From: an uncultured Clostridia bacterium
GTDB lineage: Bacteria; Bacillota_I; Bacilli_A; RF39; UBA660
NCBI GenBank assembly: GCA_947168405.1
Contig: CAMVLU010000002.1
Coordinates: 1-42,810, forward strand
Length of the DNA stretch: 42,810 nucleotides
Direction of reading: 5' to 3'
Shown here one piece after another: positions 311-41,353 of the stretch (its first letter is position 1; every line of letters begins with the position of its first letter). The position numbers and the translations under genes were made by a program. Under the pieces are notes generated by a model. The model saw nothing but the letters and a program-made list of their open reading frames with translations. It did not search any database and was not told where the DNA came from.

Positions 311-388
311 ACAACATAGATTTGCTTAACATCGTTTAATAATATTTGCAGTAATATATTAAATATTATTTATGGAAAGAAAGTGGGG

Positions 389-1171: not shown

Positions 1172-1180
1172 GTGATTAAT

Positions 1181-2059: not shown

Positions 2060-2061
2060 AA

Positions 2062-3123: not shown

Positions 3124-3137
3124 AAGGGAAGTAATAT

Positions 3138-3938: not shown

Positions 3939-4806
3939 AGGATTAGTTAGTATTATAATTACAACATATAAAACAAATGATAGTATTTTAAAATCAATAG
4001 ATTCAGCTTTACATCAATCATATAAAAATATTGAAATAATTGTTGTTGATGATAATGATCCTAAGAGTGAATATCGGATATATACTGAAAATTTAGTAAA
4101 AAAATATTCAAAATTCAATAATGTAAAATTTATTTTTCATAAAAAAAATATGAATGGTAGTACCGCAAGAAATACAGGAGCTTCAGCTGCAAATGGAGAA
4201 TATTTAAGCTTTTTAGATGATGATGATTATTATTTAGAAAACAAAATATTATGTGAAATTGAACTATTGAAAAAAAATGATTTAGATTTTTGTTCATGTT
4301 ATTATTATAGAAATAATAAAGTTTATACATTTCCTATAAAAAACGATTATACAGAAGATGTTTTTTTTAATAAAATAGTTCCACAAACATCATCCTTTTT
4401 TCTTAAAAAAAAGTGCTTTGATGAACTTAAAGGTTTCGATGTATCATATTTCAGACATCAAGATTATGAGTTTTTGTTGCGAATTTGCAAAAAATATAAA
4501 ATTGGTATTGTAGATAAACCTTTATATGTTAGAGATAGTAATGGAATAAATAATGTTCCAAATGGTCATTCATTAGAATTATTAAAAGATAAATTTCTTT
4601 CTGATTTTGATTATTTAATTAATAATCATCAATTAAACAAAAAAAAGATTTATGCAAAAAATTATTCAATAGTTTTATTTTCATATTTGAAGGAGAAAAA
4701 TAATAAAAAGGCTATTGAAATTATAAAAAAATATAATAATATTTATTTTTGGGGGTTTTTTATAAAAAAAATATTTATGTCAATAAAATATAAAGTGAGA
4801 GGTTAA
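3931..4806 (+). CDS. family-2 glycosyltransferase
   Basis: VSIIITTYKTNDSILKSIDSALHQSYKNIEIIVVDDNDP...GSTARNTGASAANGEYLSFLDDDDYY. ATG 3931 overlaps the upstream stop by 8 nt (the ORF opens at 3898). Confidence 0.85.
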   Translation: MVKGLVSIIITTYKTNDSILKSIDSALHQSYKNIEIIVVDDNDPKSEYRIYTENLVKKYSKFNNVKFIFHKKNMNGSTARNTGASAANGEYLSFLDDDDYYLENKILCEIELLKKNDLDFCSCYYYRNNKVYTFPIKNDYTEDVFFNKIVPQTSSFFLKKKCFDELKGFDVSYFRHQDYEFLLRICKKYKIGIVDKPLYVRDSNGINNVPNGHSLELLKDKFLSDFDYLINNHQLNKKKIYAKNYSIVLFSYLKEKNNKKAIEIIKKYNNIYFWGFFIKKIFMSIKYKVRG

Positions 4807-4807
4807 T

Positions 4808-5089
4808 ATGAAAAAAAATGAAAACCATATTATTTCTAAAATTAGTGTTAATGAATTATTGTTAGCTTTAAATATTGTTTTTTTTCCAGGATTTAATTAT
4901 TTTATAAAAAACTATAAAATTAATTATTTAATATCAATATGTATTCTAATTATTTTTATATTGTATAATTTGTTTTTATATATAAAAAAAGATGAAAGAC
5001 CAAAGGTTTCAATAACTACATTTTTTATTTATATAATAGTTAAAAAATTTTATTTTGTATGGATTTATTCCAATTTTATTATTTTCTAA
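4808..5089 (+). CDS. polytopic membrane fragment, probably the 5' portion of wzy
   Basis: 93 aa consisting only of TM-like helices. Overlaps the next ORF by 35 nt in another frame (see finding). Confidence 0.45.
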   Translation: MKKNENHIISKISVNELLLALNIVFFPGFNYFIKNYKINYLISICILIIFILYNLFLYIKKDERPKVSITTFFIYIIVKKFYFVWIYSNFIIF

Positions 5090-5921
5090 GATCAACAACT
5101 ATAAGAATTTGATATCATATTTATCTTTTTTCTATTTAATATTATTTATATTATCTATTAGAGATCCATTTATTGGTTATCCTATTTATTATGGATATAT
5201 GTCGTTCGGTTTATTTTGTTCTTTACCTAGTTTTATTTTATTTCATATTGAAAGAAAATATTATGATAAAAAGATTTTTTTAATTCCAGAAATTCTTTCA
5301 ATTCTTACGTTATTATATTCAAATAGAAATTCAATTTTAGTTGCATTAATTTTCGTTTTTGTATTAGATTTTTTAATCAAAAAAAATAATATTAAGAAAA
5401 TGATGAAATATTTTGTTATTTCAGTTGTAATAGGTGTTTTATTGATTAATATTGGTAATATATTAAATTTTATAAATAATAATTTGAATATTAATTCATA
5501 CGCTATAAAAGCACTAATAAGTTGGAGTAATATGTCAACGAATGGTTTAACTGGTAGAGATGTAATATGGAAAAATGCAATTAATGAATTGTTAAATAAT
5601 CCAGTTATTGGTATGGGAATTGGTGGATTTCATGCAAAATATGGTTATTATTGTCATAATGTGATTTTGGATTTATATCTATCTTTAGGAATAATTTTTG
5701 GAAGTGTATTTATTATTGTATTTATATATAAAATACGCGAGACATATAAAAATAATAATAATTATGATAAACAAATATTTTTAATATATATATTAGCAAT
5801 AGGAATTTTACCATTAATGTTTAATAATTATTTTATGGCATGGAAATATTTTTGGATTGCATTATATTTTATATTTAATAGATCGAATAATTATGGAAAA
5901 GAGAGTGTATTAAATGAATAG
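5055..5921 (+). CDS. wzy: O-antigen/EPS polymerase (Wzy, O-antigen-ligase-like domain), C-terminal portion
   Basis: GRDVIWKNAINELLNNPVIGMGIGGFHAKYGYYCHNVILDLYLSLGIIFG is the typical Wzy_C periplasmic loop and flanking helices. The start is unclear: the track uses TTG 5055 and the frame is open from 5040. Confidence 0.65.
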   Translation: MYGFIPILLFSKINNYKNLISYLSFFYLILFILSIRDPFIGYPIYYGYMSFGLFCSLPSFILFHIERKYYDKKIFLIPEILSILTLLYSNRNSILVALIFVFVLDFLIKKNNIKKMMKYFVISVVIGVLLINIGNILNFINNNLNINSYAIKALISWSNMSTNGLTGRDVIWKNAINELLNNPVIGMGIGGFHAKYGYYCHNVILDLYLSLGIIFGSVFIIVFIYKIRETYKNNNNYDKQIFLIYILAIGILPLMFNNYFMAWKYFWIALYFIFNRSNNYGKESVLNE

Positions 5922-7320
5922 AGAAAAGCAACTTATAAAAAATTCAGCTATAATAGGTATAGGTAGACTTTTACCAAAATTGATATCTGTTATTACTTTA
6001 CCTATTATTACAAGTCAATTAACGAAAACAGAATTTGGAATATATGATTTGGTAAGTACCTTAGTTATGTTTTTGTTACCAATTGCTACTTTGCAAGTTC
6101 ATTCGGCTGGATTTAGGTTTTTAATTGATGCAAGAAATGATAAAGAAAAAATAACTAAAATTGTTACAAATATATTTGCTATAGTTATTCCAATATCTGT
6201 TGTAGTGTCATTTTCATTGTTTTTTATTCTCCGTAATATATCTTCTATAACAAAATTTTCAATTTGTATGTATTTGATTTCTGATATCTTATTTCTATGT
6301 ATATCCCAAATTTGTAGAGGATTATCATATAATAAAATCTACTCTATAGGTTCTGTGATTGTTTCAACATTAAATGCATTAGGAATTGTTTTTTCTTTAA
6401 TTATAAATGATTATGGAATAACTGGTATAATTATTTCTTTATGTGTTTCACATATTATTGCATTGATTTTTATATTTTTTAAAATCAAAATATTTAGATA
6501 TATAAATTTAAAATATATTTCTAAGTCAGACATAAAAGAAATTATAAAATATTCATGGCCAATGATTCCTAATAATTTATCAGTATGGATATTAAACTTA
6601 TCTGATAGAGTTGTTATATCGTCTTTTTTGGGGTTAGAAGCTAATGCAATATATGCTGTTGCCAATAAGATACCACAGTTTTTATCTATTGCTCAATCTA
6701 TTTTTGTGATGGCATGGCAAGAAAATGCTTCAATTGCTATTAAAGATAAGGATGCAGATTTATATTTTTCCAATATGTTTAAAAAAATATTTAAATTAAT
6801 GTTTTCAGTAACAATTATTTTAATTGCATTTACACCAATAATATTTAAAATTTTGATTAGAGGAGATTATAGTAAAGCATATGTTCAAATCCCAATCTTG
6901 TTCTTAGCAATGTTTTTTAATTGTATGGCATCGTTTTTTGGTGGTATCTATATAGCTTATAAACAAACAAAAAAAATTGGTACTAGTACAATGGTTATTG
7001 CGGGAATAAATTTACTAATAGATTTAGTTCTTGTTAAGTTAATTGGTATAACTGCTGGTTCATTATCAACATTAGTTGCATACTTGTGTTTATATATTTA
7101 TAGATGTATAGACGTGAAGAATTTTCAAAAAATAAATTTGTTTTATAAAATGCAAATTATATTTATCGCAATAATAATATTTATGTTAATATTATGTTTT
7201 TGTCAAAATATGATTTTAAATATTATTAATATTATTATTGGTATTATTTTATTTGCTTATTGTAATGTTGATATTATAAATTTAATAATTAAGAAAATAA
7301 AAAAGGTGATTAAAATATGA
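5914..7320 (+). CDS. wzx: Wzx-type polysaccharide flippase (MOP/PST family)
   Basis: 468 aa with about 12-14 TM segments. The N-terminus LIKNSAIIGIGRLLPKLISVITLPIITSQLTKTEFGIYDL is typical of Wzx. Overlaps wzy by 8 nt. Confidence 0.8.
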   Translation: MNREKQLIKNSAIIGIGRLLPKLISVITLPIITSQLTKTEFGIYDLVSTLVMFLLPIATLQVHSAGFRFLIDARNDKEKITKIVTNIFAIVIPISVVVSFSLFFILRNISSITKFSICMYLISDILFLCISQICRGLSYNKIYSIGSVIVSTLNALGIVFSLIINDYGITGIIISLCVSHIIALIFIFFKIKIFRYINLKYISKSDIKEIIKYSWPMIPNNLSVWILNLSDRVVISSFLGLEANAIYAVANKIPQFLSIAQSIFVMAWQENASIAIKDKDADLYFSNMFKKIFKLMFSVTIILIAFTPIIFKILIRGDYSKAYVQIPILFLAMFFNCMASFFGGIYIAYKQTKKIGTSTMVIAGINLLIDLVLVKLIGITAGSLSTLVAYLCLYIYRCIDVKNFQKINLFYKMQIIFIAIIIFMLILCFCQNMILNIINIIIGIILFAYCNVDIINLIIKKIKKVIKI

Positions 7321-8138
7321 AAATAGGAATATGTTATTCTGATGTAAATAATATGGGTGATGTTTTAAATAAAAATTTAATTGAAAAAGTATTTAATTGT
7401 AAAGTTATCAGGAAATCACACTATTCAGCTGATATGATAGCGATAGGAAGTGGATTAAAAATATATTTATATGAAAAAAAAATTATTAAAAATATTAGAA
7501 AAAAAATAAATGGATTATTAAAACCTACAGTATATGTGTGGGGAACAGGATTTATTAATTATGCCCATGGAGATGAAAAATTTTATAAGAAAAATATGAT
7601 ATTTAAAGCTGTTAGAGGAAATTTAACAAAAAATAGAGTTGAAAAAATTATAGGAAGAAAATTAAATATTCCAACTGCTGATGGTGGATTGCTAGCATCA
7701 TATTTTATTGATAAAATTCCTCAAAAAAAATATGATGTTGGCATTATAGCTCATTTTCGTGAAAAAGAATGCAAAGAGTTTCAATGGTTATTAGAAAAGT
7801 TTGATAATTCAACATTTATAGATGTTCAAGATTCACCTGAAAATGTTACAAAGAAAATAGCAGAATGCAAAACTATTATTTCAAGTAGCCTTCACGGATT
7901 AATTATTTCTGATAGCTTAAATATTCCAAATATACATATTGTTGTATCTGATAAGCTTATTGGCGATGGGTATAAATTTGATGATTATTATTCATCATAT
8001 AATTTAAAACATGAATATATTAAATCATCTGACATACCATCTTTAACATTAGATAAAATTATTAAAAATTATAAAATTTCTAAAAATATGGTAGATGAGA
8101 AGAAGAAACAATTGATAGATTGTTTTCCATTCAAGTAA
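7317..8138 (+). CDS. polysaccharide pyruvyl transferase
   Basis: MKIGICYSDVNNMGDVLN...IGSGL...VWGTGF...AVRGNLT...IISSSLHGLIISDSLNIPNIHI matches the PS_pyruv_trans pattern. ATGA overlap with the wzx stop. Confidence 0.7.
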   Translation: MKIGICYSDVNNMGDVLNKNLIEKVFNCKVIRKSHYSADMIAIGSGLKIYLYEKKIIKNIRKKINGLLKPTVYVWGTGFINYAHGDEKFYKKNMIFKAVRGNLTKNRVEKIIGRKLNIPTADGGLLASYFIDKIPQKKYDVGIIAHFREKECKEFQWLLEKFDNSTFIDVQDSPENVTKKIAECKTIISSSLHGLIISDSLNIPNIHIVVSDKLIGDGYKFDDYYSSYNLKHEYIKSSDIPSLTLDKIIKNYKISKNMVDEKKKQLIDCFPFK

Positions 8139-8158
8139 TTTATAATGGAGGAAATGTT

Positions 8159-8878
8159 ATGCTTTTAAAAAAATATATATATAAGATATTAAAAAAAATA
8201 TTTGATTATAATCATTCTGATAGTAAAACATTTATAAAATATTTGAGAAAAAACCATGTGTCTGTTGGAGATTATACTTATTTTTTTAATCCTAGAAAAA
8301 CTATTATAGATATAAAAAATGGTAAATTTATTACAATAGGTAGTAACTGTAAAATTACGCAAGGAGTGGTAATTTTGGCTCATGATTTTAGTTATTCTAT
8401 TTTAAGACCTATATATAATGAGATTCCTAAAAAATGTGCTGAGACAATTATTGGAGATAATGTTTTTGTAGGAATAAATTCAATTATATTAATGGGAAGT
8501 AAAATAGGTAATAATTGTATAATTGGAGCCGGATCTGTAGTTAGTGGTAAAATACCTGATAATGAAGTATGGGCAGGTAATCCTGCTAGGTTTATTTGTA
8601 CTTTAGATGATTATTATAAAAAGTGTAAATCCAAATATGAAGATGGTGCTATCTTAACTGTAAAAAAATATAGAGAAAAACTTAAAAGAAATCCGACAAT
8701 ACAAGAGTTACATTTTTTTAGTTTATTATTTTTAAATAATGACATTTCAATCGATGCAAAAGAACAAATATCTAAAATGCCTTTTCATGGAGATAAATTT
8801 GATGAAGTAGTAGAAGATAGTTTAAAATATAAAAGTAAATATGATAGTTATGATGATTTTATTAAAAGTATAAAATAA
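8159..8878 (+). CDS. hexapeptide-repeat (LbH) O-acetyltransferase
   Basis: IGDNVFVGINSIILMGSKIGNNCIIGAGSVVSGKIPDNEVWAGNPARFI. GGAGG RBS (8147-8151) precedes ATG 8159 (the ORF opens at 8120). Confidence 0.85.
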   Translation: MLLKKYIYKILKKIFDYNHSDSKTFIKYLRKNHVSVGDYTYFFNPRKTIIDIKNGKFITIGSNCKITQGVVILAHDFSYSILRPIYNEIPKKCAETIIGDNVFVGINSIILMGSKIGNNCIIGAGSVVSGKIPDNEVWAGNPARFICTLDDYYKKCKSKYEDGAILTVKKYREKLKRNPTIQELHFFSLLFLNNDISIDAKEQISKMPFHGDKFDEVVEDSLKYKSKYDSYDDFIKSIK

Positions 8879-8951
8879 TTTATTATATAACGTTATAAAT
8901 ATTGGTTAAATTGAAACATATAAAATATAAATAAATAGGAGGATTAAAAAT

Positions 8952-10238
8952 ATGAATATTAAAACAGTAACAGTTATTGGCGCAAATGGAACAATGGGAA
9001 AAAATGTATCAGCAATTTTTGCATCATTCGGAAATGCAAAGGTGTATTTAGCATGTAGAACGATGGAAAAAGCAAAACAAGCAATTGTTGATGCATATAA
9101 ATCTATAAGAACGGAAACTATCAGGGAAAAGTTAATTCCTATTACTTATGATAATATTGAAAGTGCAATTAAGGAATCAGATTTGATATTTGAAACTTTA
9201 AATGAAGATATTGATTTAAAAATTAGTATGTATGAGAAAATAAATGACTTTATACAAGATAATTCAATTATTGGTTCTGTTACTTCTGGCTTGAGCATAA
9301 AAAAATTATCTAGTGTTTTTGGTAGTAAGAAAAAAAATTTTTTTGGTATTCATTTTTTTAATCCACCATATAATTTAAGTTTATGTGAGTTGGTAATTCA
9401 CGATGAAACTCAAAGAGAAAAAGCATTAGAATTAAGTGATTATTTAACTAATTCATTAAATAGAACAGTTGTTTTAACAAAAGATTTACCTTCATTTTTA
9501 GGAAATAGAATAGGATTTTTCTTTATAAATGAAGCATTAAAATTAGCAGAAGAGTATAATGATAAAGGCGGAATTGATTATATTGATGCAATATTAGGAA
9601 ACTTTACTGGTCGTTCTATGCCTCCAATTGTTACAGCAGATTTTGTTGGATTAGACACATCTAAATCAATTATTGATTATATATTTGAAAATATAGATGA
9701 TAGTTTTAGAAATTCTTTTGAATTACCTAATTATATTACTAAACTAGTTGGAGATGGTAGATTAGGCAGAAAAGTGGGATTAGGTTTATATAAAAAAGAG
9801 GAAGATAAAAAATATGTTTATGATATTGAAAATGATGAATATAGATTAGTTGTAAAATATAATATAAAATTTGCCAATGAAATGAAAGAAAATATAATAA
9901 TTGGAAAATATAAAGAAGCAATAAATATTTTATTGAGTGATAGTTCTAACGAATCTACAATATGCAGACAAATGATTTATAAGTATATAATATATTCTTT
10001 GTATGTTTCTAATGTTGTTACAGATGATATTTATTCCTGTGATGATGCTATGGCAACAGGATTTGGTTGGTTACCTCCAATTGGATATATAGAATTATTA
10101 GGTGGAAAAGATAAATTTTATGAATTAGTAAAAAAAGAAATGGATGATAAATGGATAAAAGTATTAGATAATGAAAGATTGTTGGATAAACTGAATAAAA
10201 AATCTAAATATGATTATCGAAAATTTATTAAATCTTAA
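8952..10238 (+). CDS. 3-hydroxyacyl-CoA dehydrogenase family protein (long form)
   Basis: Rossmann motif VTVIGANGTMGKNV. FGIHFFNPP signature and GFFFINEAL are typical of 3HCDH enzymes. AGGAGG RBS. Confidence 0.85.
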   Translation: MNIKTVTVIGANGTMGKNVSAIFASFGNAKVYLACRTMEKAKQAIVDAYKSIRTETIREKLIPITYDNIESAIKESDLIFETLNEDIDLKISMYEKINDFIQDNSIIGSVTSGLSIKKLSSVFGSKKKNFFGIHFFNPPYNLSLCELVIHDETQREKALELSDYLTNSLNRTVVLTKDLPSFLGNRIGFFFINEALKLAEEYNDKGGIDYIDAILGNFTGRSMPPIVTADFVGLDTSKSIIDYIFENIDDSFRNSFELPNYITKLVGDGRLGRKVGLGLYKKEEDKKYVYDIENDEYRLVVKYNIKFANEMKENIIIGKYKEAINILLSDSSNESTICRQMIYKYIIYSLYVSNVVTDDIYSCDDAMATGFGWLPPIGYIELLGGKDKFYELVKKEMDDKWIKVLDNERLLDKLNKKSKYDYRKFIKS

Positions 10239-10255
10239 TATAAGGAGAATTTGAT

Positions 10256-11509
10256 ATGAATAATAAAGTATATATTTTAGGAGGATCTCAAACTGATTTT
10301 TCAAGAAATTGGAATAAAGAAGGTAAAAATGTAATTGCTTTACTTAGAGAAAATATTTTTGATACACTAAATGAAGTTAATTTAACAAAAGAAGAAATAA
10401 TAGAATTAAATAAAAATAATAAAATTGCAATATTTGTTGGTAATTTTATAGCAGAAAATTATATAAATCAAGGACATTTAGGTTCTCTTTTAACTGAGGT
10501 TGATCCTTGTTTTTATGGGATACCTTCTGCAAGATATGAGGCTGCTTGTGCTTCTGGATCAGTTGCCATCGATGCTGCATCTAGTAAAATAAAAGATGGA
10601 ACATATGATGTTGCAATTGTTATTGGATTCGAGTTAATGAAAACAGTTGATTCTAGAGTAGGTGGAAGTTTTTTAGGTAAGGCAGGGTACTATGAAAAAG
10701 AGGGAAAAGATATTGAATTACCATTTCCTAAATTATTTTCGAAATTGGCTGATGAATTACTTATAAAATATAATTTAAATAGAGAAGTCTTTTTAAAGGA
10801 TTTAGCGGATATTTCATTTATTAATTATAGAAATGCGAAAAGAAATAGTAATGCTCAAACAAGAGACTGGTATGTATGTGATAAAGAAATAATTAATAGA
10901 GGGAATGAAACAAATCCGATAATTGCTGGGGAATTAGCTTTAAAAGATTGCTCTCAAATAACTGATGGAGCTTCATCAATTATTCTTTGTTCAGATAAAT
11001 ACAATAAAATAAGAAATAATAAATCAAATGTAATTATTAAAGGATTTGGTCATAGAGTTGCTCCGTTAGAATTTGAAAAGAAAATGGAAGATTCTAAAAA
11101 TAATAAATATATATTGCCATGGACTAGGCAAGCATGTCTTGATGCATATAAAAGAGCAAAATTAACTGTTGATGACATAGATTTATTTGAAACTCACGAT
11201 TGTTTTACATCGAGTGAATATGCAGCTATTTCATGTTTTGGTTTATGCGAACCAGGAGGAGAACATAATGTAATTAATAGTGGAATAATAGATTTTAATG
11301 GTAAGAAACCAATTAATCCAAGTGGAGGATTAATTGGTTGTGGACATCCAGTAGGAGCAACAGGTGTGAGAATGATGCTTGATTTATATAAACAAGTAAG
11401 TAATAAAGCTGGAAAATATCAAATAAAAAATGCTAAAAATGCAATGATGTTAAATTTAGGCGGTTCTGCAACAACTAATTATGCGTATATAGTAGGAAAA
11501 GATATATAG
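10256..11509 (+). CDS. thiolase-fold acyltransferase (SCP-x/archaeal-like thiolase rather than AtoB type)
   Basis: [17 protein letters not shown] contains the nucleophilic Cys. Also HDCFTSSE and [20 protein letters not shown] near the C-terminus. AGGAGA RBS. Confidence 0.85.
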
Positions 11510-11725: not shown

Positions 11726-11760
11726 TGTAAAAAGTATGTACCTTTTTACATTTTTCTTTT
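11726..11760 (+). terminator. rho-independent terminator-like hairpin with no intact gene to terminate
   Basis: TGTAAAAAG (11726-11734), 7-nt loop, CTTTTTACA (11742-11750), then TTTTTCTTTT. Confidence 0.5.
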
Positions 11761-11787
11761 TACTTTATCAGCAGAAGTTGTTATAAT
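11759..11787 (+). promoter_or_regulatory. promoter of the STAND gene
   Basis: TTTACT (11759-11764), 17-bp spacer, extended -10 TGtTATAAT (11779-11787). GAGGAG RBS before ATG 11834. Confidence 0.5.
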
Positions 11788-11833: not shown

Positions 11834-14482
11834 ATGGATATAATTAGTAATGCAAAATTAAAAAGAAATTTTCTTTTTTGTTTGTTATCAAATATAGAAA
11901 TTGATTTGAGAAAGAATATTGTTGATAATGATAAAATAGAAAAAAATTCAAGTATATTAGAAAAATTGAAAAATAGATATAAAGATGATAATAATAATGA
12001 AACCAATGACATAATGTTTTTAATAAATTATGCAGATTTAGGCGATTATATTCAAATTTTAAATTCTAATTGTTTGAAATTTATTAATTCTAAAATGGTA
12101 AAAAAACTCACCGATGAGATAGAGAAAATTGTACCAACAAGAAATAGAATTATGCATATTAGACCTTTGGAACCAAACGACGATAAATTAATAATTGATT
12201 TTGTAAATAAAATGAATAAATTTTCTGATATTATAAATTTTTCAAATACAATTTCAGAATACAATAAAATAAAAGAAGATCCTGATTATTTGCTTTCTGT
12301 TGTACCAAATATAATAATAAAAGAAAAGCAAAAAATTAAGCACAATCTGCCAATGGTTGATTATGATGATACAGGTTTTATTGGCAGGAACAAGGATAAA
12401 GATGAATTAAAGAAAAAAATAACTGGTCCATATCCCGTTATTTCAGTTATAGGTGTTGGTGGAATAGGAAAAACTTCTCTTGTTTTAAGTTGCTTATATG
12501 AAATGCTAGATGAAGAAGCTATATTTAATACTATTATTTGGATAACATTAAAAACAAAAGGACTTTATAATGGTGATTTTAAAGAAATTAAAGATGTTAT
12601 TTTAAATTTAGATGAAAATTTTAAAAAGATAAATTATGATTTTCAAAATGATAACATATCTAATATTAATGATATATTATCATATATGAGTAATAATAAA
12701 ACTCTTCTTGTTATAGATAATTTAGAAACATTGAGTAATGATAAAACAATAATAAAATTATTCGAAGAAATACCAAATGGATCTAAAATTTTAATTACAT
12801 CTAGAATTGGCTTTGGTAATTATGAGCAAAGTTTTAAACTTGAAGCATTAAATAATAAAGAATCTTTGGATTATTTTAGAAAATTAGCAAAAGTATATAA
12901 AGTAAAATCTTTAATAAAACAAACAGATAATAGTTTAGAAAAATATTTGGAAAAATTAAATAATAATCCTCTAGCAATTAAATGGTTTATTATCAATGTT
13001 GGAAAGGGAATGGTACCTAGTGAAATTTTGAATAATCATATATCAGATTTAACTGATTTTTGTTTATCAAATATTTATGATAAATTATCAGAAGATGCAA
13101 AATATATATTAAGAATTATATTAATAAAAACTAACAAATGTGGGTTAGCAGAATTATTGTATTTATGTGAACTTAGTCATGATAGATGTTTAAATTCAAT
13201 TAATGAGTTATTTACAAGCAACTTTTTAGTACAAAATGATGATTTTAGTTATTCTATATTAGATTTTGCTGTTAATTATATTCAAAATAAAAAAGGAATC
13301 TTTAATTATGAGATAGATAGTAATATTCAAACAAAAATTAATAAATTAAATGGAAGTTTGGAGAATTTAAAAAATAATATTCATTTAGTTAATGAGTATC
13401 ATCCTTTGTCTCTTTTTCCCAAAACAAATGATGAAAGAATTGCAACACTATATATGTTAAAGGCTATAGAATGTTCCAAAAACAAAAATTATTCAGAGGT
13501 AGATGAATTTATAAGTTTAGCACAAAATGCAACTTTTTCTTTCTCTGATATATATAAAATTGCAGGTTACATATATTCTAAATATGATAGCATTAAATCA
13601 GAAAATTTTTATAATATTGCAATAAATAGAGCCGAAAATAAAGCACCTGTATACTATTTTTTTGCAGGTTCATTAATTAATAATCAAAAATATGAAATGG
13701 CAGAAGAAGTAATAAAAAAAGCAATCGAATTAGAACCAGATAATAGTCTAATTAAGCTAAGGTATGCTAGATTAGAGAAAATGCAAAATAAATTTAATAT
13801 ATCTTTAAGAATGTTATCAGATATAGATAATAATAGTTTCAATGAATATGAAAGTAAGATGGAAGTAAAATATATTTTTGAAATGATTGATACTAGAATA
13901 AGATATGCTGAATCGTTACTTGAAAATGATAAGGAATTGTCATTTTCTAATATATTAGAAACTTTGAAATTCTTGAGTCACTGTAAGACTAGTTTATTTG
14001 ACTTTACCATATATAATTCACTTTTTAAATTGTGTCATATATATATAAGACTTTTATCGAATTCAAATTTTGATACGAAAGAATTTATTGATTTTATATT
14101 TCATTATCATTCATACATATTAGCAGCAAAAAATGGTCATAAAAAAGAGCATTTGTTTGAAAGCGACTTAGATTGTTTGTGTCAGAGATTATCTGATGAC
14201 GAATCAAAAAAGATTAATGATATTTTTAATTATAATGGTTCAATTAAAGATATAAATTATGGATATATTTGCTCGTTAAAAAAAGAAAGAGGATATGGTT
14301 TTATAACACCATCTACATATTCATATCAAACTATATTTTTTCATTGTAGTCAATTTAAAGGTGATTTTAGAAAATTAAATGCTTATGATAAAGTATCTTT
14401 TGAAATGTTTATTTCAAGTCAAAAAGTTAATGCAGTTAATGTTCGACTTTATAAATACGATAAATCAACAGATGACAATTGA
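11834..14482 (+). CDS. STAND NTPase: N-terminal Swt1-like HEPN, NB-ARC ATPase, TPR repeats, C-terminal cold-shock domain
   Basis: HEPN Rx4H motif RNRIMH (nt 12140-12157). Walker A GVGGIGKTS (12452-12478). Walker B LLVIDNLE (12704-12727). ILITSR and NNPLAIKWF (GxP-like) motifs. TPR-like KAIELEPDNSLIKLRYARL. CSD motifs RGYGFITP...IFFHCSQF...DKVSFE...AVNV (about 14255-14449). Confidence 0.85.
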   Translation: MDIISNAKLKRNFLFCLLSNIEIDLRKNIVDNDKIEKNSSILEKLKNRYKDDNNNETNDIMFLINYADLGDYIQILNSNCLKFINSKMVKKLTDEIEKIVPTRNRIMHIRPLEPNDDKLIIDFVNKMNKFSDIINFSNTISEYNKIKEDPDYLLSVVPNIIIKEKQKIKHNLPMVDYDDTGFIGRNKDKDELKKKITGPYPVISVIGVGGIGKTSLVLSCLYEMLDEEAIFNTIIWITLKTKGLYNGDFKEIKDVILNLDENFKKINYDFQNDNISNINDILSYMSNNKTLLVIDNLETLSNDKTIIKLFEEIPNGSKILITSRIGFGNYEQSFKLEALNNKESLDYFRKLAKVYKVKSLIKQTDNSLEKYLEKLNNNPLAIKWFIINVGKGMVPSEILNNHISDLTDFCLSNIYDKLSEDAKYILRIILIKTNKCGLAELLYLCELSHDRCLNSINELFTSNFLVQNDDFSYSILDFAVNYIQNKKGIFNYEIDSNIQTKINKLNGSLENLKNNIHLVNEYHPLSLFPKTNDERIATLYMLKAIECSKNKNYSEVDEFISLAQNATFSFSDIYKIAGYIYSKYDSIKSENFYNIAINRAENKAPVYYFFAGSLINNQKYEMAEEVIKKAIELEPDNSLIKLRYARLEKMQNKFNISLRMLSDIDNNSFNEYESKMEVKYIFEMIDTRIRYAESLLENDKELSFSNILETLKFLSHCKTSLFDFTIYNSLFKLCHIYIRLLSNSNFDTKEFIDFIFHYHSYILAAKNGHKKEHLFESDLDCLCQRLSDDESKKINDIFNYNGSIKDINYGYICSLKKERGYGFITPSTYSYQTIFFHCSQFKGDFRKLNAYDKVSFEMFISSQKVNAVNVRLYKYDKSTDDN

Positions 14483-14690: not shown

Positions 14691-14716
14691 ACTTTTTATA
14701 TGTCTGTTGTTATAAT
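14688..14716 (+). promoter_or_regulatory. promoter of the DUF4365-like operon
   Basis: TTTACT (14688-14693), 17-bp spacer, TGtTATAAT (14708-14716). Same architecture as 11759-11787. Confidence 0.5.
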
Positions 14717-14743: not shown

Positions 14744-16534
14744 GTGGTTAATCTTGCAAGATATGTAAAAAGTTCATTTGATGAAAGTAAAGGAAATGAT
14801 TTTTTAGATTTAGTTTTAACTAGTACTAATAAAATATATTCACATTTTCCTAAATTAGATAAAGGACCTAATTTTGATGGTCATTTTGAATTGTTAGATA
14901 ATAATGGTATTCCTATAGGTAGATTTAATGTACAAATTAAAACTATGAATACTGATTATAAAAATAATAATAAAAGAGGAATTATTAGTCAATATAAGTA
15001 TTCTTGTGATACAAAAATATTTAATGCTGTAAAACATGGAATAACGCTTGATCCTTGTTATTTATTTATGGTAGATGTTGTAAATAGAAGAATATTTGGT
15101 AAATATGTTAGTTTAGAATATGTATTGTCTTTAGATATAAAAAATGAAAATAATAAAGTTATATATTTTAATGATGATGATGAAATAGTTGATGTAAATA
15201 ATTTTTATAATAATTTAGTTGATATTTATAATGATAGAAAAAATAAAATGATAAGTATTGAACAAAATAAATTTATTATTACATCTTCTATATCTGATGA
15301 AGAATTAAGTGATTTACAATTAGAATTTGATTATTTAAATAATATGTTTGACAATGAATTAAAATATATTAAGGATAAATTATTTCCTAATATTTGGAAG
15401 TTTGGTATAGCTTACATGAAAGAAGAAAAATCTCTTGGTGTTGGTATTTATTATATTAAAAAAGGGAAAAATGGAGAATTTATAAAATATTTAAATGATG
15501 AAACATTTGGTAATTGTTCATTTATTACTATAAGTAATAAAACAAAAATAAGAGATTTAATTAATGGATTTATATCTTCAATTTTAGAAAGATGTTATGA
15601 ATATAGGATTATACCTATTGAATATGTTGATAATGAGGTATTATTTGAAATATTATTTTATTTTTTAGATGAAATATCTAAAGTATATAAAGAGGTGGAA
15701 AATAAAAATAAATTAGATGTTTATTATAAAGATGAAGAAGACATTAATATAATAAAAAATTATTATTATGGAATAGAGAAATATATTAAATATACATTTG
15801 GAAAAGCATTTAATGTAGTAACTACTACTAAAAGTAAATATTCTATGTATAAAATTGATCCTTTAGACGAACCTTTTTCTGGAAACGATATGTACGAAAA
15901 AGAAAAACTTCTTATAAATTGTTTTAAAGAATTAAATGATGATATGTTTGACAATAAAATAATAGTTGATGGAAATCATTTTTATGAGTTAATTAAAGAA
16001 TCTATTTATGAATTAGAAAGAAGAAATATAAAAAAAGTAAAAAGAGTTTGGATACCTAAAGATTGGAACGATTATATAAATAGAGTAGAAAATGGAAACA
16101 GATACAAGATAGAAAATACTTTTAAAATATCAGATTATAATTATAATATTAAAAAATTATTATCTATATTTCCTTCTCAATATAACGATTTTGTAAGTAA
16201 AATAAATAAAAAATTATCATTAAAAAATAAATATGTATGTGGTTATTCTAATGATGACCAATATTTATTGAGATATGAAAAATATGAAAGTAATAAATTT
16301 GAAATTATAATAGATAACCATATTTTAAATAATAAAGTTGCTGAAATTACACAAGATATGAAAAATAAAAAATTTATTAGTAGAACAGATGTTTCAATTC
16401 CATATGCTTTTAAAGATATGACTCTTTTAATAAATTTAAACTATGTATTTATTAGACAATTTTGTTTTATAAATGGTATCAAGGATATTGATTTAAATGA
16501 TCAAAATATATTATTTGATATGATAGGAGATTAA
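14744..16534 (+). CDS. 596-aa protein with a DUF4365-like (PD-(D/E)xK restriction-endonuclease-fold) N-terminal domain; remaining ~450 aa unrecognised
   Basis: NFDGHFELLDNNGIPIGRFNVQIKT (D45 ... Q64-I-K66, nt 14876-14941), then DPCYLFMVDVVNRRIFGKYVS, matches the D..vQvK / vlvvvD pattern of DUF4365. GTG start lies 6 nt after an AGGTGA RBS. Confidence 0.7.
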   Translation: MVNLARYVKSSFDESKGNDFLDLVLTSTNKIYSHFPKLDKGPNFDGHFELLDNNGIPIGRFNVQIKTMNTDYKNNNKRGIISQYKYSCDTKIFNAVKHGITLDPCYLFMVDVVNRRIFGKYVSLEYVLSLDIKNENNKVIYFNDDDEIVDVNNFYNNLVDIYNDRKNKMISIEQNKFIITSSISDEELSDLQLEFDYLNNMFDNELKYIKDKLFPNIWKFGIAYMKEEKSLGVGIYYIKKGKNGEFIKYLNDETFGNCSFITISNKTKIRDLINGFISSILERCYEYRIIPIEYVDNEVLFEILFYFLDEISKVYKEVENKNKLDVYYKDEEDINIIKNYYYGIEKYIKYTFGKAFNVVTTTKSKYSMYKIDPLDEPFSGNDMYEKEKLLINCFKELNDDMFDNKIIVDGNHFYELIKESIYELERRNIKKVKRVWIPKDWNDYINRVENGNRYKIENTFKISDYNYNIKKLLSIFPSQYNDFVSKINKKLSLKNKYVCGYSNDDQYLLRYEKYESNKFEIIIDNHILNNKVAEITQDMKNKKFISRTDVSIPYAFKDMTLLINLNYVFIRQFCFINGIKDIDLNDQNILFDMIGD

Positions 16535-16551
16535 AATAAGGAGGTGAAGTA

Positions 16552-16839
16552 ATGGAAAGACCTATAGGAGTTGAAGCTCAAAATAAAGCTATTGAATTTG
16601 AGCATATTCTTAGAAATGTGTATGGAAATGTTTATTTAAATTCATCTGATGAATTAAGAAATAGTTTATATGATAAACTAGTAGAAGTTAATTTATCAAG
16701 TAGTAAGAATAATAAACAAATAGAATTTATTAATAAGTATTTTTATCTTGAAGGAGAATCTATTGATTCTATATTAGAGAGAGAAGATGGAATAGAATTA
16801 TTAGATGAAATAAAAAAAGATTTAAAAGAGATAATATAA
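16552..16839 (+). CDS. 95-aa acidic protein, unknown function, translationally linked to the upstream gene
   Basis: Strong RBS AAGGAGGTGA 6 nt before the ATG and a 17-nt gap after the upstream stop. E/D-rich. No family recognised. Confidence 0.7.
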   Translation: MERPIGVEAQNKAIEFEHILRNVYGNVYLNSSDELRNSLYDKLVEVNLSSSKNNKQIEFINKYFYLEGESIDSILEREDGIELLDEIKKDLKEII

Positions 16840-16892: not shown

Positions 16893-16918
16893 AAAAAGGT
16901 GAACATTTTTCACCTTTT
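16893..16918 (+). terminator. terminator hairpin of the two-gene operon
   Basis: AAAAGGTGAA (16894-16903), loop CATTT, TTCACCTTTT (16909-16918). Confidence 0.5.
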
Positions 16919-17107: not shown

Positions 17108-18043
17108 ATGAAACAAGAAATTATTTTATTTGAAAATCAAAATGTAAAATTGGAAGTTAACATGAAGGATGAAACCGTATGGCTTACACAAGCTCAAATG
17201 GCTGAATTATTTGATAGGAATGTAGGCGTTGTATCAAGACATATTAAGAATGTATTTGAAGAAGAGTTAGAAGAAAAAAGCAATTTGCAAAAAATGCAAA
17301 TTCCTAATTCTGATAAACCTGTAAATTTATATAGTTTAGATGTAATTATTAGTGTTGGATATCGTGTTAAATCTCAAAATGGTATTATATTTAGAAAATG
17401 GGCTAATAAAGTATTAAAAGATTATTTAATAAAGGGATATGCAGTTAATCAAAAAAGATTAGATTATCTAGAAAAAACTGTTAAATTAATTGATATAGCT
17501 GGAAGGATAGAACAAAATCTTCGTGGAGATGAAGCTCAAGGGATTATTAGAGTAATTAATAATTATAGTAACGCATTATCATTACTTGATGATTATGATC
17601 ATAGATGTGTACCTAAACCTAAAGGAAATATTAGAAAAGAAAAAATAAAATATGAAGAATGTATAGATATAATTTCTAAACTAAAATATAACAGTGATAG
17701 TAATTTATTTGCATTGGAGAGAAATAAAGGTTTATCATCAATTATAGAAAATATTTATGCAACATTTGCTGGTAATGATGTATATCCAAGTGTAGAAGAA
17801 AAAGCAGCTAATTTTTTATATTTAATTACTAAGAATCATACTTTTATTGATGGTAATAAAAGAATTGCAGCAACTTTATTTATATATTTTTTAGAATTTA
17901 ATAATATTTTATATAAAAATGATAAAAGAGTAATTGATAATAATACTTTAGTTGCTTTAACATTATTAATTGCACAATCTAATCCCAAAGAAAAAGAAAT
18001 ATTAATAGATTTAATTATGAACTTTTTAAATACAGATTATTAG
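17108..18043 (+). CDS. RhuM-family N-terminal domain fused to a Fic/DOC domain (Doc-type motif)
   Basis: N-terminus ETVWLTQAQMAELF...YSLDVIISVGYRVKSQNGIIFRKWANKVLKDYLIKGY is the RhuM signature. C-terminus HTFIDGNKRIAA (nt 17837-17863) is the Doc-like HxFxDxNKR variant of the Fic motif. Confidence 0.85.
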   Translation: MKQEIILFENQNVKLEVNMKDETVWLTQAQMAELFDRNVGVVSRHIKNVFEEELEEKSNLQKMQIPNSDKPVNLYSLDVIISVGYRVKSQNGIIFRKWANKVLKDYLIKGYAVNQKRLDYLEKTVKLIDIAGRIEQNLRGDEAQGIIRVINNYSNALSLLDDYDHRCVPKPKGNIRKEKIKYEECIDIISKLKYNSDSNLFALERNKGLSSIIENIYATFAGNDVYPSVEEKAANFLYLITKNHTFIDGNKRIAATLFIYFLEFNNILYKNDKRVIDNNTLVALTLLIAQSNPKEKEILIDLIMNFLNTDY

Positions 18044-19812
18044 TGGAGGTTTAAATGAATTATTATAATAATATCAAAGAAAAGTTGATAAATAATGAAA
18101 TAGTAAAAAGAGTAAAAGATTATAGTAAAAATAAAAGTGATTTAGATACGTATTATGAAGTAGGTAAATTACTTGTTGATGCTGGTAAACATTATGGAGA
18201 AGGAATAATTAAACAATATTCCTTTAAATTAACAAATGAATTAGGTAAAGGATATACACAATCTAGATTAAGATATATAAGAAGATTTTATCTAGTGTTT
18301 TCAAAATGTCCGACACTGTCGGATAAATTAACTTATTCTCATTATTGTGAAATAATGTGGTTTGATGAAGATAAAATGAATTACTATATAAATATATCTT
18401 TGAAACAAATGTTAAGTGTTAGACAATTACGTCAAAAAATTAAATCAAATGAATATGAAAGATTACCAATTGAATCTAGAAATAAGTTAATTAATAAAGA
18501 AGAAAAAGAATTAGTCGATTTTATTCCTAATCCTATTATTATAAAAAATAAATATAATACCAACGAAATAAGTGAAAAAGTATTAAAGCAATTAATACTT
18601 GAAGATATATCTAGTTTTTTAAAAGAATTAGGAGAAGGATTTTGTTTTATCGATTCAGAATATAAAATAAAAATAGGAGATAGTTATAATTATATAGATT
18701 TATTGTTATTTAATATTAAATATAATTGTTATATTGTAATAGAATTAAAAGCAACAGAATTAAAGAAAGAACATATAGGACAAATACAAGTTTATATGAA
18801 TTATATAGATAAAAGTGTAAAAGAAATATTTAATAATAAAACAATAGGATTAATTATATGTAAAAAAGATAATAAGTTTATTATTGAGTATTCTAGTGAT
18901 CCGAGAATTTATACAAGAGTTTATAAATTGATGGAGGTTTAAATGAATTATTATAATAATATCAAAGAAAAGTTGATAAATAATGAAATAGTAAAAAGAG
19001 TAAAAGATTATAGTAAAAATAAAAGTGATTTAGATACGTATTATGAAGTAGGTAAATTACTTGTTGATGCTGGTAAACATTATGGAGAAGGAATAATTAA
19101 ACAATATTCCTTTAAATTAACAAATGAATTAGGTAAAGGATATACACAATCTAGATTAAGATATATAAGAAGATTTTATCTAGTGTTTTCAAAATGTCCG
19201 ACACTGTCGGATAAATTAACTTATTCTCATTATTGTGAAATAATGTGGTTTGATGAAGATAAAATGAATTACTATATAAATATATCTTTGAAACAAATGT
19301 TAAGTGTTAGACAATTACGTCAAAAAATTAAATCAAATGAATATGAAAGATTACCAATTGAATCTAGAAATAAGTTAATTAATAAAGAAGAAAAAGAATT
19401 AGTCGATTTTATTCCTAATCCTATTATTATAAAAAATAAATATAATACCAACGAAATAAGTGAAAAAGTATTAAAGCAATTAATACTTGAAGATATATCT
19501 AGTTTTTTAAAAGAATTAGGAGAAGGATTTTGTTTTATCGATTCAGAATATAAAATAAAAATAGGAGATAGTTATAATTATATAGATTTATTGTTATTTA
19601 ATATTAAATATAATTGTTATATTGTAATAGAATTAAAAGCAACAGAATTAAAGAAAGAACATATAGGACAAATACAAGTTTATATGAATTATATAGATAA
19701 AAGTGTAAAAGAAATATTTAATAATAAAACAATAGGATTAATTATATGTAAAAAAGATAATAAGTTTATTATTGAGTATTCTAGTGATCCGAGAATTTAT
19801 ACAAGAGTTTAT
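18044..19812. repeat. perfect tandem direct duplication, period 888 bp (18044-18924 and 18932-19812)
   Basis: The unit starts at the RBS TGGAGGTTTAA and runs to ...GAGTTTAT, with a 7-bp junction AAATTGA. Every stretch I compared at offset 888 was identical. Confidence 0.9.
18055..18942 (+). CDS. YhcG/DUF1016 family PD-(D/E)xK nuclease, copy 1
   Basis: YYEVGKLLVD...GEGIIKQYSFKLTNELGKGYTQSRLRYIRRFY...SHYCEIM...GFCFIDSEYKIKIGDSYNYIDLLLFNIKYNCYIVIELKATELKKEHIGQIQVYMNY. GGAGG RBS. Confidence 0.85.
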   Translation: MNYYNNIKEKLINNEIVKRVKDYSKNKSDLDTYYEVGKLLVDAGKHYGEGIIKQYSFKLTNELGKGYTQSRLRYIRRFYLVFSKCPTLSDKLTYSHYCEIMWFDEDKMNYYINISLKQMLSVRQLRQKIKSNEYERLPIESRNKLINKEEKELVDFIPNPIIIKNKYNTNEISEKVLKQLILEDISSFLKELGEGFCFIDSEYKIKIGDSYNYIDLLLFNIKYNCYIVIELKATELKKEHIGQIQVYMNYIDKSVKEIFNNKTIGLIICKKDNKFIIEYSSDPRIYTRVYKLMEV

Positions 19813-19824
19813 GTTTTAAAATAA
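18943..19824 (+). CDS. YhcG/DUF1016 family PD-(D/E)xK nuclease, copy 2
   Basis: Identical to copy 1 over the first 290 aa. Only the last residues differ (VLK* versus KLMEV*). Confidence 0.85.
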   Translation: MNYYNNIKEKLINNEIVKRVKDYSKNKSDLDTYYEVGKLLVDAGKHYGEGIIKQYSFKLTNELGKGYTQSRLRYIRRFYLVFSKCPTLSDKLTYSHYCEIMWFDEDKMNYYINISLKQMLSVRQLRQKIKSNEYERLPIESRNKLINKEEKELVDFIPNPIIIKNKYNTNEISEKVLKQLILEDISSFLKELGEGFCFIDSEYKIKIGDSYNYIDLLLFNIKYNCYIVIELKATELKKEHIGQIQVYMNYIDKSVKEIFNNKTIGLIICKKDNKFIIEYSSDPRIYTRVYVLK

Positions 19825-19889: not shown

Positions 19890-21056
19890 ATGAAAATTGC
19901 TGTTGCAGGAACAGGTTATGTAGGATTATCTTTAGCAACTTTATTAAGTACTAAAAATGAAGTTATAGCTTTAGATATAATACCTGAAAAAGTAGATATG
20001 ATTAATAATAGAATTAGTCCTATACAAGATGAATATATTGAAAAATATTTTAAAGAGAAAGAATTAAATTTAAAAGCTACTTTAGATTATAAAGAAGCTT
20101 TTGAAGGTGCTAAATATGTTATTATTTCAACACCTACTAATTATGATCCAGAGAAGGATTATTTTGATACATCTTCTGTTGAAGATATAATCATGAAAGT
20201 TAAATCAATGAATCTTGATACTACTATGGTTGTTAAATCAACTGTACCAGTTGGATTTATTAAGTCTATGAAAGAAAAATATGATATTGATAATATTATG
20301 TTTTCACCAGAATTTTTAAGAGAAGGAAAAGCTTTATATGATAATTTATATCCATCTAGAATAATAGTTGGAGAAAAGTCAGAAAGAGCTCAGATATTTG
20401 CTAATTTATTAAAGACATGCTGTTTAAAAGATGATGTTGTTATTAAATACATGGATTCTACTGAAGCAGAAGCTGTTAAATTATTTGCTAATACATTTTT
20501 AGCTTTAAGAGTTGCTTATTTTAATGAATTAGATACTTATTCAGAACTTAAAGGATTAAATACTAAAGATATTATCGATGGAGTATGTTTAGATCCAAGA
20601 ATTGGTAATTATTATAATAATCCATCTTTTGGATTTGGAGGATATTGTTTACCAAAAGATTCTAAACAATTAAAAGCTAATTATAAAGATGTTCCTGAAA
20701 ATATTATCAGTGCTATTGTTGAAGCTAATAGAACTAGAAAAGATCATATAGCAAATATGATTTTAACTAAGAATCCTAAAGTAGTTGGTGTATATCGTTT
20801 AACTATGAAAAGTGGATCTGATAACTTTAGAGCAAGTGCTATTCAAGGAGTTATGAAAAGAATTAAAGCTAAAGGTGTTGAAGTAGTTGTCTATGAACCA
20901 ACTTTAAAAGAAGATAATTTCTTTAATAGTAGAGTTATTCGTGATTTAGATGAATTTAAGAAAATATCTGATGTTATTGTTGTTAACAGATTAGATGATA
21001 ATATAAAAGATGTTGAAGATAAAATTTATACAAGAGATTTATTTGTAAGAGACTAA
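19890..21056 (+). CDS. ugd: UDP-glucose 6-dehydrogenase
   Basis: [20 protein letters not shown] Rossmann motif, [22 protein letters not shown], and the catalytic Cys in [10 protein letters not shown]. 388 aa. Confidence 0.95.
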
Positions 21057-23005: not shown

Positions 23006-23071
23006 GTAAAATATCTTTATTTTTCTTAATAAATATATTATTATATTAAGTTATAAATGGGAGGGTTTTAT

Positions 23072-41278: not shown

Positions 41279-41353
41279 TGGTTGCCTCAGTTAGATTCGA
41301 ACTAACGCGTAATGGAGTCAGAGTCCACTGCCTTACCGCTTGGCTATGAGGCA
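41279..41353 (-). tRNA. tRNA-Gln (anticodon CUG), CCA encoded
   Basis: Reverse complement folds as TGCCTCA-TA-GCCA-AGCGGTA-AGGC-A-GTGGA-CTCTGAC-TCCAT-TACGC-GTTAG-TTCGAAT-CTAAC-TGAGGCA-A-CCA (75 nt). Acceptor and T stems are perfect. The AGCCAAGCGGTAAGGC D-arm is typical of tRNA-Gln. Confidence 0.9.

Follow-up and report, generated by a model that had tools for sequence, protein, structure and literature searches.

A HEPN–STAND–TPR-like–cold-shock-domain protein of an uncultured Clostridia bacterium as a candidate single-gene immune sensor

Can a single bacterial gene hold the sensor, the switch, and the RNA-cutting output of an NLR-like immune protein, and what would a cold-shock domain (CSD) contribute at its C-terminal end? 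This question is raised by one gene in a 42,810-nucleotide stretch of DNA from an uncultured Clostridia bacterium (hereafter, the window; positions 1 to 42,810 of contig CAMVLU010000002.1, assembly GCA_947168405.1). The open reading frame (ORF) at 11834..14482 (+ strand) encodes an 882-aa protein in which Pfam, homologues, alignment, and AlphaFold2 (AF2) modeling identified a predicted HEPN ribonuclease (RNase) domain, an NB-ARC-type STAND NTPase, TPR-like repeats, and a terminal CSD. Taken together, the analysis described below suggests that this protein probably acts on its own as an abortive-infection sensor of the Avs-like (bacterial NLR-like) kind, its output being an RNase.

Domain architecture of the protein

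An earlier note, made from the sequence alone, had proposed the order effector, STAND module, repeats, and CSD. This order was recovered by Pfam and by the full-length AF2 model, and the ORF and motif positions given in the note were exact, including those of R103-H108, K213, D295, and R324. The full-length model (predicted local distance difference test score, pLDDT, 86.4; predicted template modeling score, pTM, 0.64) contained, from the N-terminus, a helical bundle, a linker, a nucleotide-binding domain (NBD, 186-335), HD1 (341-390), a winged-helix domain (395-485), a solenoid (492-799), and a β-barrel (802-872). Its best Foldseek matches in the PDB were wheat Sr35 (9.8e-9), Apaf-1 (1.3e-7), SAMD9 (3e-7), CED-4 (1e-6), WRR4A, MalT, RPP1, and Roq1, followed by TPR proteins. 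A database search with the protein returned 294 homologues, mostly of 850-950 aa, and conservation was assessed in an alignment of 48 diverse full-length homologues with 24-65% identity.

The N-terminal part (aa 7-155, 11852..12298, +) is a predicted all-alpha HEPN domain of the Swt1/Abi2 type and the presumable RNase effector, as indicated by homologue profiles, invariant residues, and the AF2 model. Its predicted catalytic Rx4H motif, RNRIMH (R103-H108, 12140..12157, +), is kept across the family: RN[RK][VI]xH was present in 120/120 homologues among the matches listed, down to 24-26% identity, and in all 88 genomic copies. Therefore, selection appears to preserve the active site. R103, N104, H108, D24, R48, P111, and D116 were invariant in the 48 homologues, and E22 was additionally invariant in an alignment of 31 N-terminal domains. 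When these 31 domains were scanned singly at E<=0.01, 18 matched HEPN_Swt1 (best 8e-6) and four matched Abi_2 (PF07751), and no competing family recurred. The AF2 model of the domain (pLDDT 92) was all-alpha, with helices H7-31 and H39-53, an insert hairpin (H60-66 and H69-78), and helices H86-107 and H116-130; R103-N104 lie at the end of H86-107, the third core helix, and H108 lies in the next loop. Members of the HEPN superfamily have an up-down core of four helices, the second and third of which are separated by an insert, and a conserved Rx4-6H motif in which a polar residue (N, D, or H) follows the arginine (PMC3710099). The N-terminal domain of the window protein fits this published topology when compared by secondary-structure order only, and its motif, RNRIMH, has an asparagine after the arginine. 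We thus consider it very likely that the domain is a Swt1/Abi2-type HEPN, an assignment based on motif, topology, profile matches, and literature rather than on structural superposition.

The linker that follows contains the STAND 'hhGR' motif (HNLPxPDFDDTGFIGR, aa 161-186, 12314..12391, +) and is the most conserved segment of the family, with a mean pairwise identity of 0.53 and with N171, L172, P173, G181, F182, G184, and R185 invariant among the aligned sequences. The NBD (aa 187-338, 12392..12847, +) carries a Walker A motif, GVGGIGKT (K213), a Walker B motif, LLVIDNLET (D295, N296, and E298), and a sensor-1 TSR (R324), and its fold matches those of Sr35, Apaf-1, and CED-4. HD1 and the winged-helix domain, including the GxP-like NNPLAIKWF (P379, K383, and W384), occupy aa 339-488 (12848..13297, +) according to the alignment, AF2, and Foldseek. 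Pfam NB-ARC (PF00931) matched aa 187-385 with E=2.6e-12 (47 bits against a cut-off of 23.5), and the residues G207-K213, D295/N296/E298/T299, T322-S323-R324, and P379/K383/W384 were invariant across the 48 sequences. With a profile above the cut-off and invariant motifs, the NB-ARC module proposed in the earlier note was confirmed; the protein has the defining features of the AP-ATPase/NB-ARC clade and is a STAND of that clade. The Walker B motif (12704-12730, aa 291-299) reads DNLET in 78/88 genomic copies and deviates from the form hhhhDD/DE; the acidic spacing of DNLET recalls the extended Walker B of NACHT proteins rather than the DD of NB-ARC proteins.

A TPR-like α-solenoid of 14 helices (aa 489-800, 13298..14233, +) was predicted by AF2 and is the presumed sensor; weak TPR profiles and Foldseek matches of the TPR type (CTPR, APC/C, and P58IPK) point in the same direction. 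The TPR repeats expected from the earlier note were therefore found as a helical solenoid predicted to span some 300 aa, although the sole repeat recognized by Pfam (TPR_8, aa 604-637, E=7e-5) was below the cut-off and the matches to TPR_2, MamA, and PilW-type families were weak or below the cut-off, so that 'TPR-like' is the safe wording. Likewise, NCBIfam gave only weak matches of the window protein to CspE/CspA, FxSxx_TPR, and MamA. Mean pairwise identity was 0.43 in the NBD, 0.31 in the HEPN domain, and 0.22 in the solenoid, and it was 0.15 in aa 701-800, the most variable part of the protein. Such a conservation gradient is typical of NLR-like sensors and fits a diversifying recognition surface situated just before the CSD.

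The CSD itself (aa 802-873, 14237..14452, +) was identified by Pfam, by sequence matches in the PDB, and by the β-barrel of the AF2 model, and it contains an RNP1-like RGYGFI and an RNP2-like IFFHC. Pfam CSD (PF00313) matched aa 809-871 with E=1.1e-12 (48.1 bits against a cut-off of 27), and the PDB matches included human CSDE1/UNR (E=1.5e-5) and CspA/CspC (about 1e-3). In a comparison with CspA and CspB, the domain was collinear with both, RGYGFI corresponding to KGFGFI and IFFHC to VFVHF; the equivalents of W11 and F34 of CspA are not kept. Across the 48 homologues, [YF]821 was found in 45, F823 in 43, [FY]835 in 43, and H837 in 30. The CSD anticipated by the earlier note is thus supported by a profile above the cut-off, a predicted barrel, and the RNP1/RNP2 aromatics, which are retained in members from different phyla.

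Local hidden Markov models detected the CSD in 75/88 genomic copies, in comparison with 88/88 for HEPN and NB-ARC. The copies without it comprise truncated genes and a genuine short sub-clade of 773-798 aa that ends after the helical repeats and keeps the HEPN domain, the NOD (nucleotide-binding oligomerization domain), and the repeats. This sub-clade occurs in gammaproteobacteria, Leptospira, Nostoc, and Desulfovibrio (loci L017, L018, L020, L022, L023, L026, L051, L045, and L083) and forms a natural CSD-deletion series. Because the binding motifs are kept, yet one sub-clade does without the domain, the CSD is best described as an accessory part of the sensor arm that is predicted to bind single-stranded nucleic acids and is dispensable in one sub-clade.

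Distribution and genomic context

We scanned 185,579 species genomes, one per species, and found relatives in at least 251 of them, belonging to more than ten phyla (Bacillota, Bacteroidota, Pseudomonadota, Actinomycetota, Cyanobacteria, Planctomycetota, Acidobacteriota, Chloroflexota, Spirochaetota, Myxococcota, and Verrucomicrobiota), as well as in one Heimdallarchaeota metagenome-assembled genome. With 251 species genomes spread over so many phyla, the distribution of the family is patchy and resembles that produced by horizontal gene transfer. A profile of the HEPN domain retrieved 1,716 clusters (50% identity) at E<=1e-3 among 1.84 billion representatives, and the best matches were nearly all 850-950 aa in length. 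A few copies are carried on plasmids, where RefSeq labels them only as 'NB-ARC domain-containing protein'.

In an all-vs-all BLAST of the four genes on each side at about 84 loci, no conserved neighbor was detected, and the largest cluster was that of serine recombinases (5 loci). Therefore, the protein constitutes a single-gene system, as the earlier note had assumed. Dense defense islands surround three homologues of widely differing similarity. The copy with 76% identity (L001) lies behind T5orf172, an EcoRI-type methylase, and GmrSD+HNH, with Abi_2 upstream and a serine recombinase and Bro-N downstream. The 57% homologue (L003) has Abi_2, NERD, and a DUF2726 helicase on one side and Mrr, a MazG-like protein, an SLFN-like helicase, Dcm, MutH, and Cas9 on the other, whereas the 29% homologue (L093) is located after two methylases, HNH, AAA_22, and DUF2357+PDDEXK_7 and before an integrase. 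A fourth copy (35% identity, L092) has a CAP12-PCTIR TIR gene, HD, and AAA_21 as neighbors. Among the matches listed for 150 immediate neighbors, PADLOC reported type II/IV restriction enzymes, methyltransferases, PARIS AriA/B, Avs2, PD-Lambda-5, MADS, AbiL, and PDC-S02, and the commonest Pfam families were integrases, methyltransferases, AAA_21, Mrr, GmrSD, resolvase, and HSDR_N. These observations indicate that copies of the gene are often found in defense or mobile islands.

In the window, where G+C content is about 22% throughout, the gene is the first in an islet that spans roughly 8 kb (11.5-19.9 kb) and comprises the STAND gene, a 596-aa ORF, a 95-aa ORF, a RhuM-Fic/DOC gene, and two tandem YhcG/DUF1016 nuclease genes. 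The RhuM N-terminal domain fused to Fic/DOC (17108-18043) is a full-length match to the PADLOC candidate PDC-S23 (E=7e-119), and the YhcG/DUF1016 genes for PDDEXK nucleases, which lie side by side at 18055-18942 and 18943-19824, correspond to the candidate PDC-S02. Thus, the defense-type neighborhood reported in the earlier note was recovered in the form of PDC-S23 and two copies of PDC-S02 downstream, although these are candidate systems only. According to a repeat finder, the PDC-S02 pair (18039-19824) is an 888-bp tandem duplication whose first 300 nt are 99% identical; it may be a recent real duplication or an assembly artefact. The 596-aa (GTG start) and 95-aa ORFs (14744-16839), located immediately 3' of the STAND gene, had no Pfam, NCBIfam, or PADLOC family match, and none of the 94 homologue loci that were fetched contained a homologue of either. 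They were therefore rejected as partners of the STAND gene and may represent an uncharacterized two-gene system of the islet.

The intergenic region 5' of the STAND gene (324 bp) contains a putative promoter-like site (11759..11787, +) consisting of TTTACT, a 17-nt spacer, and TATAAT with an extended -10 TG, which matches the sigma-70 consensus at 10/12 positions. The extended -10 12-mer GTTGTTATAATA occurs at 11777 for the STAND gene and has its sole other copy at 14706, before the 596-aa gene. The promoter suggested by the earlier note is accordingly plausible from this match, although promoter-like sites were no commoner than in shuffled sequence. The first terminator-like hairpin 3' of the gene is at 16894-16918. 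No RNA elements or tRNA were seen near the gene, the only tRNA in the window being at 41279-41353.

The islet lies within a polysaccharide/capsule-type biosynthesis cluster, which flanks it in the window at 383-11509 and 19890-21056. Clusters of this type enclose the STAND gene or the islet in three independent contexts, namely the window, L091, and L092; the polysaccharide-cluster homologues are P0024 (L091, 58% identity) and P0057 (L092, 35% identity). This recurrence suggests that polysaccharide-type variable loci are recurrent landing sites. Additionally, an 818-aa protein encoded at 23057-25513 of the window contains two AAA-type P-loop regions with AAA, AAA_2, and MCM-like matches; its PADLOC matches (mad8, IetA, and BrxF) were weak, so that it is not evidently a defense gene.

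Proposed mechanism and rival explanations

From the features described above, we infer an RNase activity, oligomerization, a trigger, an abortive outcome, and a role for the CSD, which could be combined as follows. HEPN RNases need two domains to form a composite Rx4-6H site, a requirement known from Csm6, Cas13, RNase L, and HepT. For this reason, the protein at rest would be a closed monomer in which the single HEPN domain is inactive, and ligand-driven oligomerization of the NOD would be a natural switch for an effector of this kind. On infection, a specific ligand would bind the variable C-terminal arm, formed by the TPR-like solenoid and, at its tip, the CSD; the cue would most likely be a phage protein or a protein-nucleic-acid complex. 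Ligand binding would open the NB-ARC module and allow NTP-dependent oligomerization that gathers the N-terminal HEPN domains. The paired domains would then cut cellular and/or phage RNA, and translation and phage growth would stop.

Several results weigh against this reading and concern the effector, the switch, and the defensive role. On the window protein itself, the match of Pfam HEPN_Swt1 (PF18731) to aa 41-119 had E=0.006 and, with 17.3 bits, did not reach the cut-off of 27.5. For the N-terminal model, Foldseek returned a best E of 0.97 in the PDB, where the HEPN-MNT entry reached only E=2.9, and a best E of 0.38 in BFVD. A PDB profile search with the HEPN alignment gave chance matches only, and hhalign of the same alignment against two neighboring Abi_2 proteins gave a probability of 0.8%, with a template that was too shallow. 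Thus, of the Swt1-type HEPN claim in the earlier note, the motif, the topology, and the matches of 18/31 homologues stood, whereas profile support above the cut-off and a Foldseek match were missing for the window protein; since small bundles of helices are hard to align, the Foldseek null does not decide the matter and is not contrary evidence. In the switch, the Walker B motif of the family has an asparagine at the usual second acidic position and an invariant glutamate three positions on, and therefore the NTP hydrolysis cycle of the family may be atypical. As to the defensive role, no recognized defense gene was found within 10 kb at L006/7, L008, L010, and L091, a plasmid copy from Planococcus (L094) had only genes of toxin-antitoxin systems, and about half of the ten annotated contexts were without a recognized defense gene within this distance. 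The 150 immediate neighbors include many housekeeping genes, and their scan covers the top matched families. No copies were detected in 50,697 phage records, PADLOC v2 had no model for the window protein and gave no Avs match (weak CSD_V, PDC-M34B, and mad8 only), and the searchable literature contained no experimental report on any family member. The defense reading of the earlier note is reasonable and partly supported by context: it fits the islands at L001, L003, and L093 and the TIR gene at L092, while the other contexts are neutral.

These same results bear on two explanations that would change the nature of the protein. The N-terminal helices could form an adaptor or oligomerization domain with CARD-like logic that recruits another effector, instead of a catalytic HEPN RNase. 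The Pfam score below the cut-off and the missing structural match to solved HEPN domains would agree with this, as would the eukaryotic Swt1 HEPN domains, which are thought to be inactive (Biol Direct 8:15). However, R-N-x3-H is invariant in every homologue together with E22, D24, and R48 and is placed exactly at the HEPN active-site position, no conserved partner gene is available as a recruitable effector, and the 2013 survey of conflict systems graded the Swt1-like HEPN-STAND fusion 'mostly active' (Biol Direct 8:15); we therefore regard an adaptor as very unlikely. The protein could also be non-immune, that is, an RNase regulated for housekeeping or stress functions, or a STAND that binds RNA and signals in the manner of GutR, MalT, or AfsR; its input would be an endogenous cue, for example cold or stress on translation. 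Several homologues carry the JGI label 'LuxR family glucitol operon transcriptional activator', the fold matches include MalT, several contexts are devoid of defense genes, and CSDs are classical stress and RNA-chaperone modules. Nevertheless, no helix-turn-helix or other DNA-binding output domain was detected by Pfam or NCBIfam, and a GutR/LuxR-type regulator as implied by the JGI labels was rejected on this ground. In addition, the N-terminus has a strictly conserved motif of toxin-type HEPN domains, the spread is of the patchy kind expected from horizontal transfer (251 of 185,579 species genomes), and copies sit in variable islets beside integrases, recombinases, restriction-modification systems, and Abi genes, with neither a conserved operon partner nor a regulated target. 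A non-immune function is accordingly most improbable.

Within the proposed immune sensor, three roles of the CSD can be considered, namely substrate capture or tethering, nucleic-acid sensing, and a latch. If the CSD were the primary sensor, phage single-stranded RNA or DNA, or single-stranded DNA presented by a phage SSB (a protein that binds single-stranded DNA), would trigger oligomerization and HEPN activity in place of a TPR-bound phage protein. The presence of the CSD in 75/88 members with conserved RNP1/RNP2 aromatics, its position at the extreme C-terminus, which is the usual sensor end of STAND proteins, and the precedent of DARNA, an HEPN tRNase activated by single-stranded DNA, favor this role. 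On the other hand, the CSD-less sub-clade keeps the HEPN domain, NOD, and TPR-like repeats intact, the hypervariability of the helices adjacent to the CSD fits diversifying protein recognition and not a generic nucleic acid, and W11 and F34 of CspA are not conserved. Moreover, CSDs bind single-stranded RNA and DNA with little specificity, and because of this, discrimination between self and non-self by a CSD would be hard. A role as the primary sensor is thus unlikely, and it is equally doubtful that the protein would represent the first bacterial NLR-like STAND to respond to a nucleic-acid cue (single-stranded RNA or DNA of a phage, or SSB-presented DNA) instead of a phage protein, with this sensing coupled directly to an HEPN RNase. 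Alternatively, the OB fold (oligonucleotide/oligosaccharide-binding) of the CSD may serve mainly as a protein-contact latch as in SAMD9, holding the closed state by folding of the TPR-OB arm onto the NOD or effector, or making an inter-protomer contact that activation needs, with nucleic-acid binding secondary or lost. SAMD9 has the order tRNase-...-NOD-TPR-OB and is matched by the full-length model (E=3e-7) over about 980 aligned columns; its TPR1-TPR2-OB arm bends back onto the NBD, and a contact of an OB loop with the SIR2 domain is required for activation. Yet the conserved CSD positions of the family are those of the RNP1/RNP2 nucleic-acid-binding face, the superposition on SAMD9 is poor (root-mean-square deviation 30 A, template modeling score 0.16), and the AF2 model gave no inter-domain geometry (pTM 0.64), which leaves a latch with a low probability. 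We favor a CSD that tethers the complex to RNA, for capture or placement of the substrate, or that co-recognizes a protein-nucleic-acid complex, over a role as the sole sensor; among the three roles, substrate capture or RNA tethering is slightly favored.

If the gene is indeed a defense gene, it represents a widespread single-gene NLR-like system of at least 251 species that is missing from PADLOC v2. The proposed activity, if true, would extend the bacterial NB-ARC branch, which holds the plant R proteins and Apaf-1, by an RNase output. In addition, the CSD-bearing and CSD-less members provide a natural contrast for the function of a C-terminal OB fold in a STAND switch, and if the CSD senses nucleic acid, members of the CSD-less sub-clade would serve as natural controls of the protein-only kind. 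The function of the terminal CSD is the main question worth pursuing; the architecture itself was listed in 2013.

Comparison with known systems

The earlier note knew of no described member with a terminal CSD; the view that the architecture is undescribed did not hold. Anantharaman, Makarova, Burroughs, Koonin, and Aravind (2013; Biol Direct 8:15) listed Swt1-like HEPN + STAND + TPR + S1 and mentioned C-terminal cold-shock OB domains, giving as examples Npun_F6454, MED222_16016, Desac_1927, and a protein of B. cereus (gi 229028907), and the order RNase-NOD-TPR-OB is also found in SAMD9/9L and Avs9. The 2013 HEPN-STAND-TPR-S1/CSD proteins share with the window protein the domain order and the Swt1/Abi2 clade, and for both an active RNase that works within a conflict system is predicted. 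The species scan found relatives of the window protein in Nostoc, Vibrio, Desulfo- genera, and Bacillales, and the protein very probably belongs to the same family as the 2013 examples, with the named examples compared by description only. The Vibrio-like and Nostoc-like relatives fetched here are without an OB domain, unlike the 2013 listing, and that paper presents the architecture without a mechanism, name, or experiment. Therefore, the architecture is one already catalogued computationally in 2013, and the window protein adds a member to an experimentally untouched kind.

A CSD in a defense system is also known from the effector of the type V retron Se72 (PADLOC CSD_V; NCBIfam NF038236). 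In that system, the CSD is a small stand-alone protein associated with a reverse transcriptase and multicopy single-stranded DNA, whereas that of the window protein is a fused domain, and the matches of the window CSD to these models (E=2.9e-5 in PADLOC and E=0.032 in NCBIfam) are weak and generic to CSDs. By analogy, the predicted effector resembles RNase L KEN, Csm6/Csx1, Cas13, RAZR, and DARNA, which are metal-independent Rx4-6H RNases that become active when a ligand-controlled module pairs the HEPN domains and that lead to abortive infection or translation arrest. The control module would be a STAND NTPase in the window protein, in place of the ankyrin/kinase, CARF, crRNA, or zinc-finger modules of these enzymes.

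The general design is shared with Avs1-5 and Avs7-21, which are described by Gao et al. (2020/2022) and Lee et al. (2026, PMC13581612) as single genes in defense islands that combine an effector, a STAND module, and a TPR-like sensor. The census of Lee et al. defines 589 STAND clades and Avs7-21, and no CSD appears in its main text. The window family likewise has a single gene, a three-part design, and some copies in defense islands. According to the Avs literature, ligand-induced oligomerization activates Avs proteins, as is proposed here for the window protein, and their triggers are phage proteins; the known effectors are mostly DNases, SIR2, TIR, and proteases, in contrast to the predicted HEPN domain, and the descriptions consulted include no C-terminal CSD, which the window protein has. 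The window protein is outside Avs1-5 as modeled in PADLOC and is Avs-like in its proposed mode of action.

SAMD9/SAMD9L and the bacterial Avs9, which are antiviral and shut down translation, share with the window protein the order of an N-terminal RNase, a STAND NOD, TPR, and a C-terminal OB domain, and SAMD9 is a well-studied precedent for immune switches built as tRNase-NOD-TPR-OB. The effector of SAMD9 is an AlbA_2/Schlafen-like tRNase rather than a predicted HEPN domain, SAMD9 has additional SAM, SIR2-like, and Delta domains, and its NOD belongs to another STAND clade, whereas that of the window protein matches NB-ARC proteins best; moreover, the OB domain of the window protein, compared with that of SAMD9, is a bona fide CSD by sequence. 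The window protein and its relatives offer a bacterial, genetically tractable parallel to the RNase-NOD-TPR-OB design of SAMD9.

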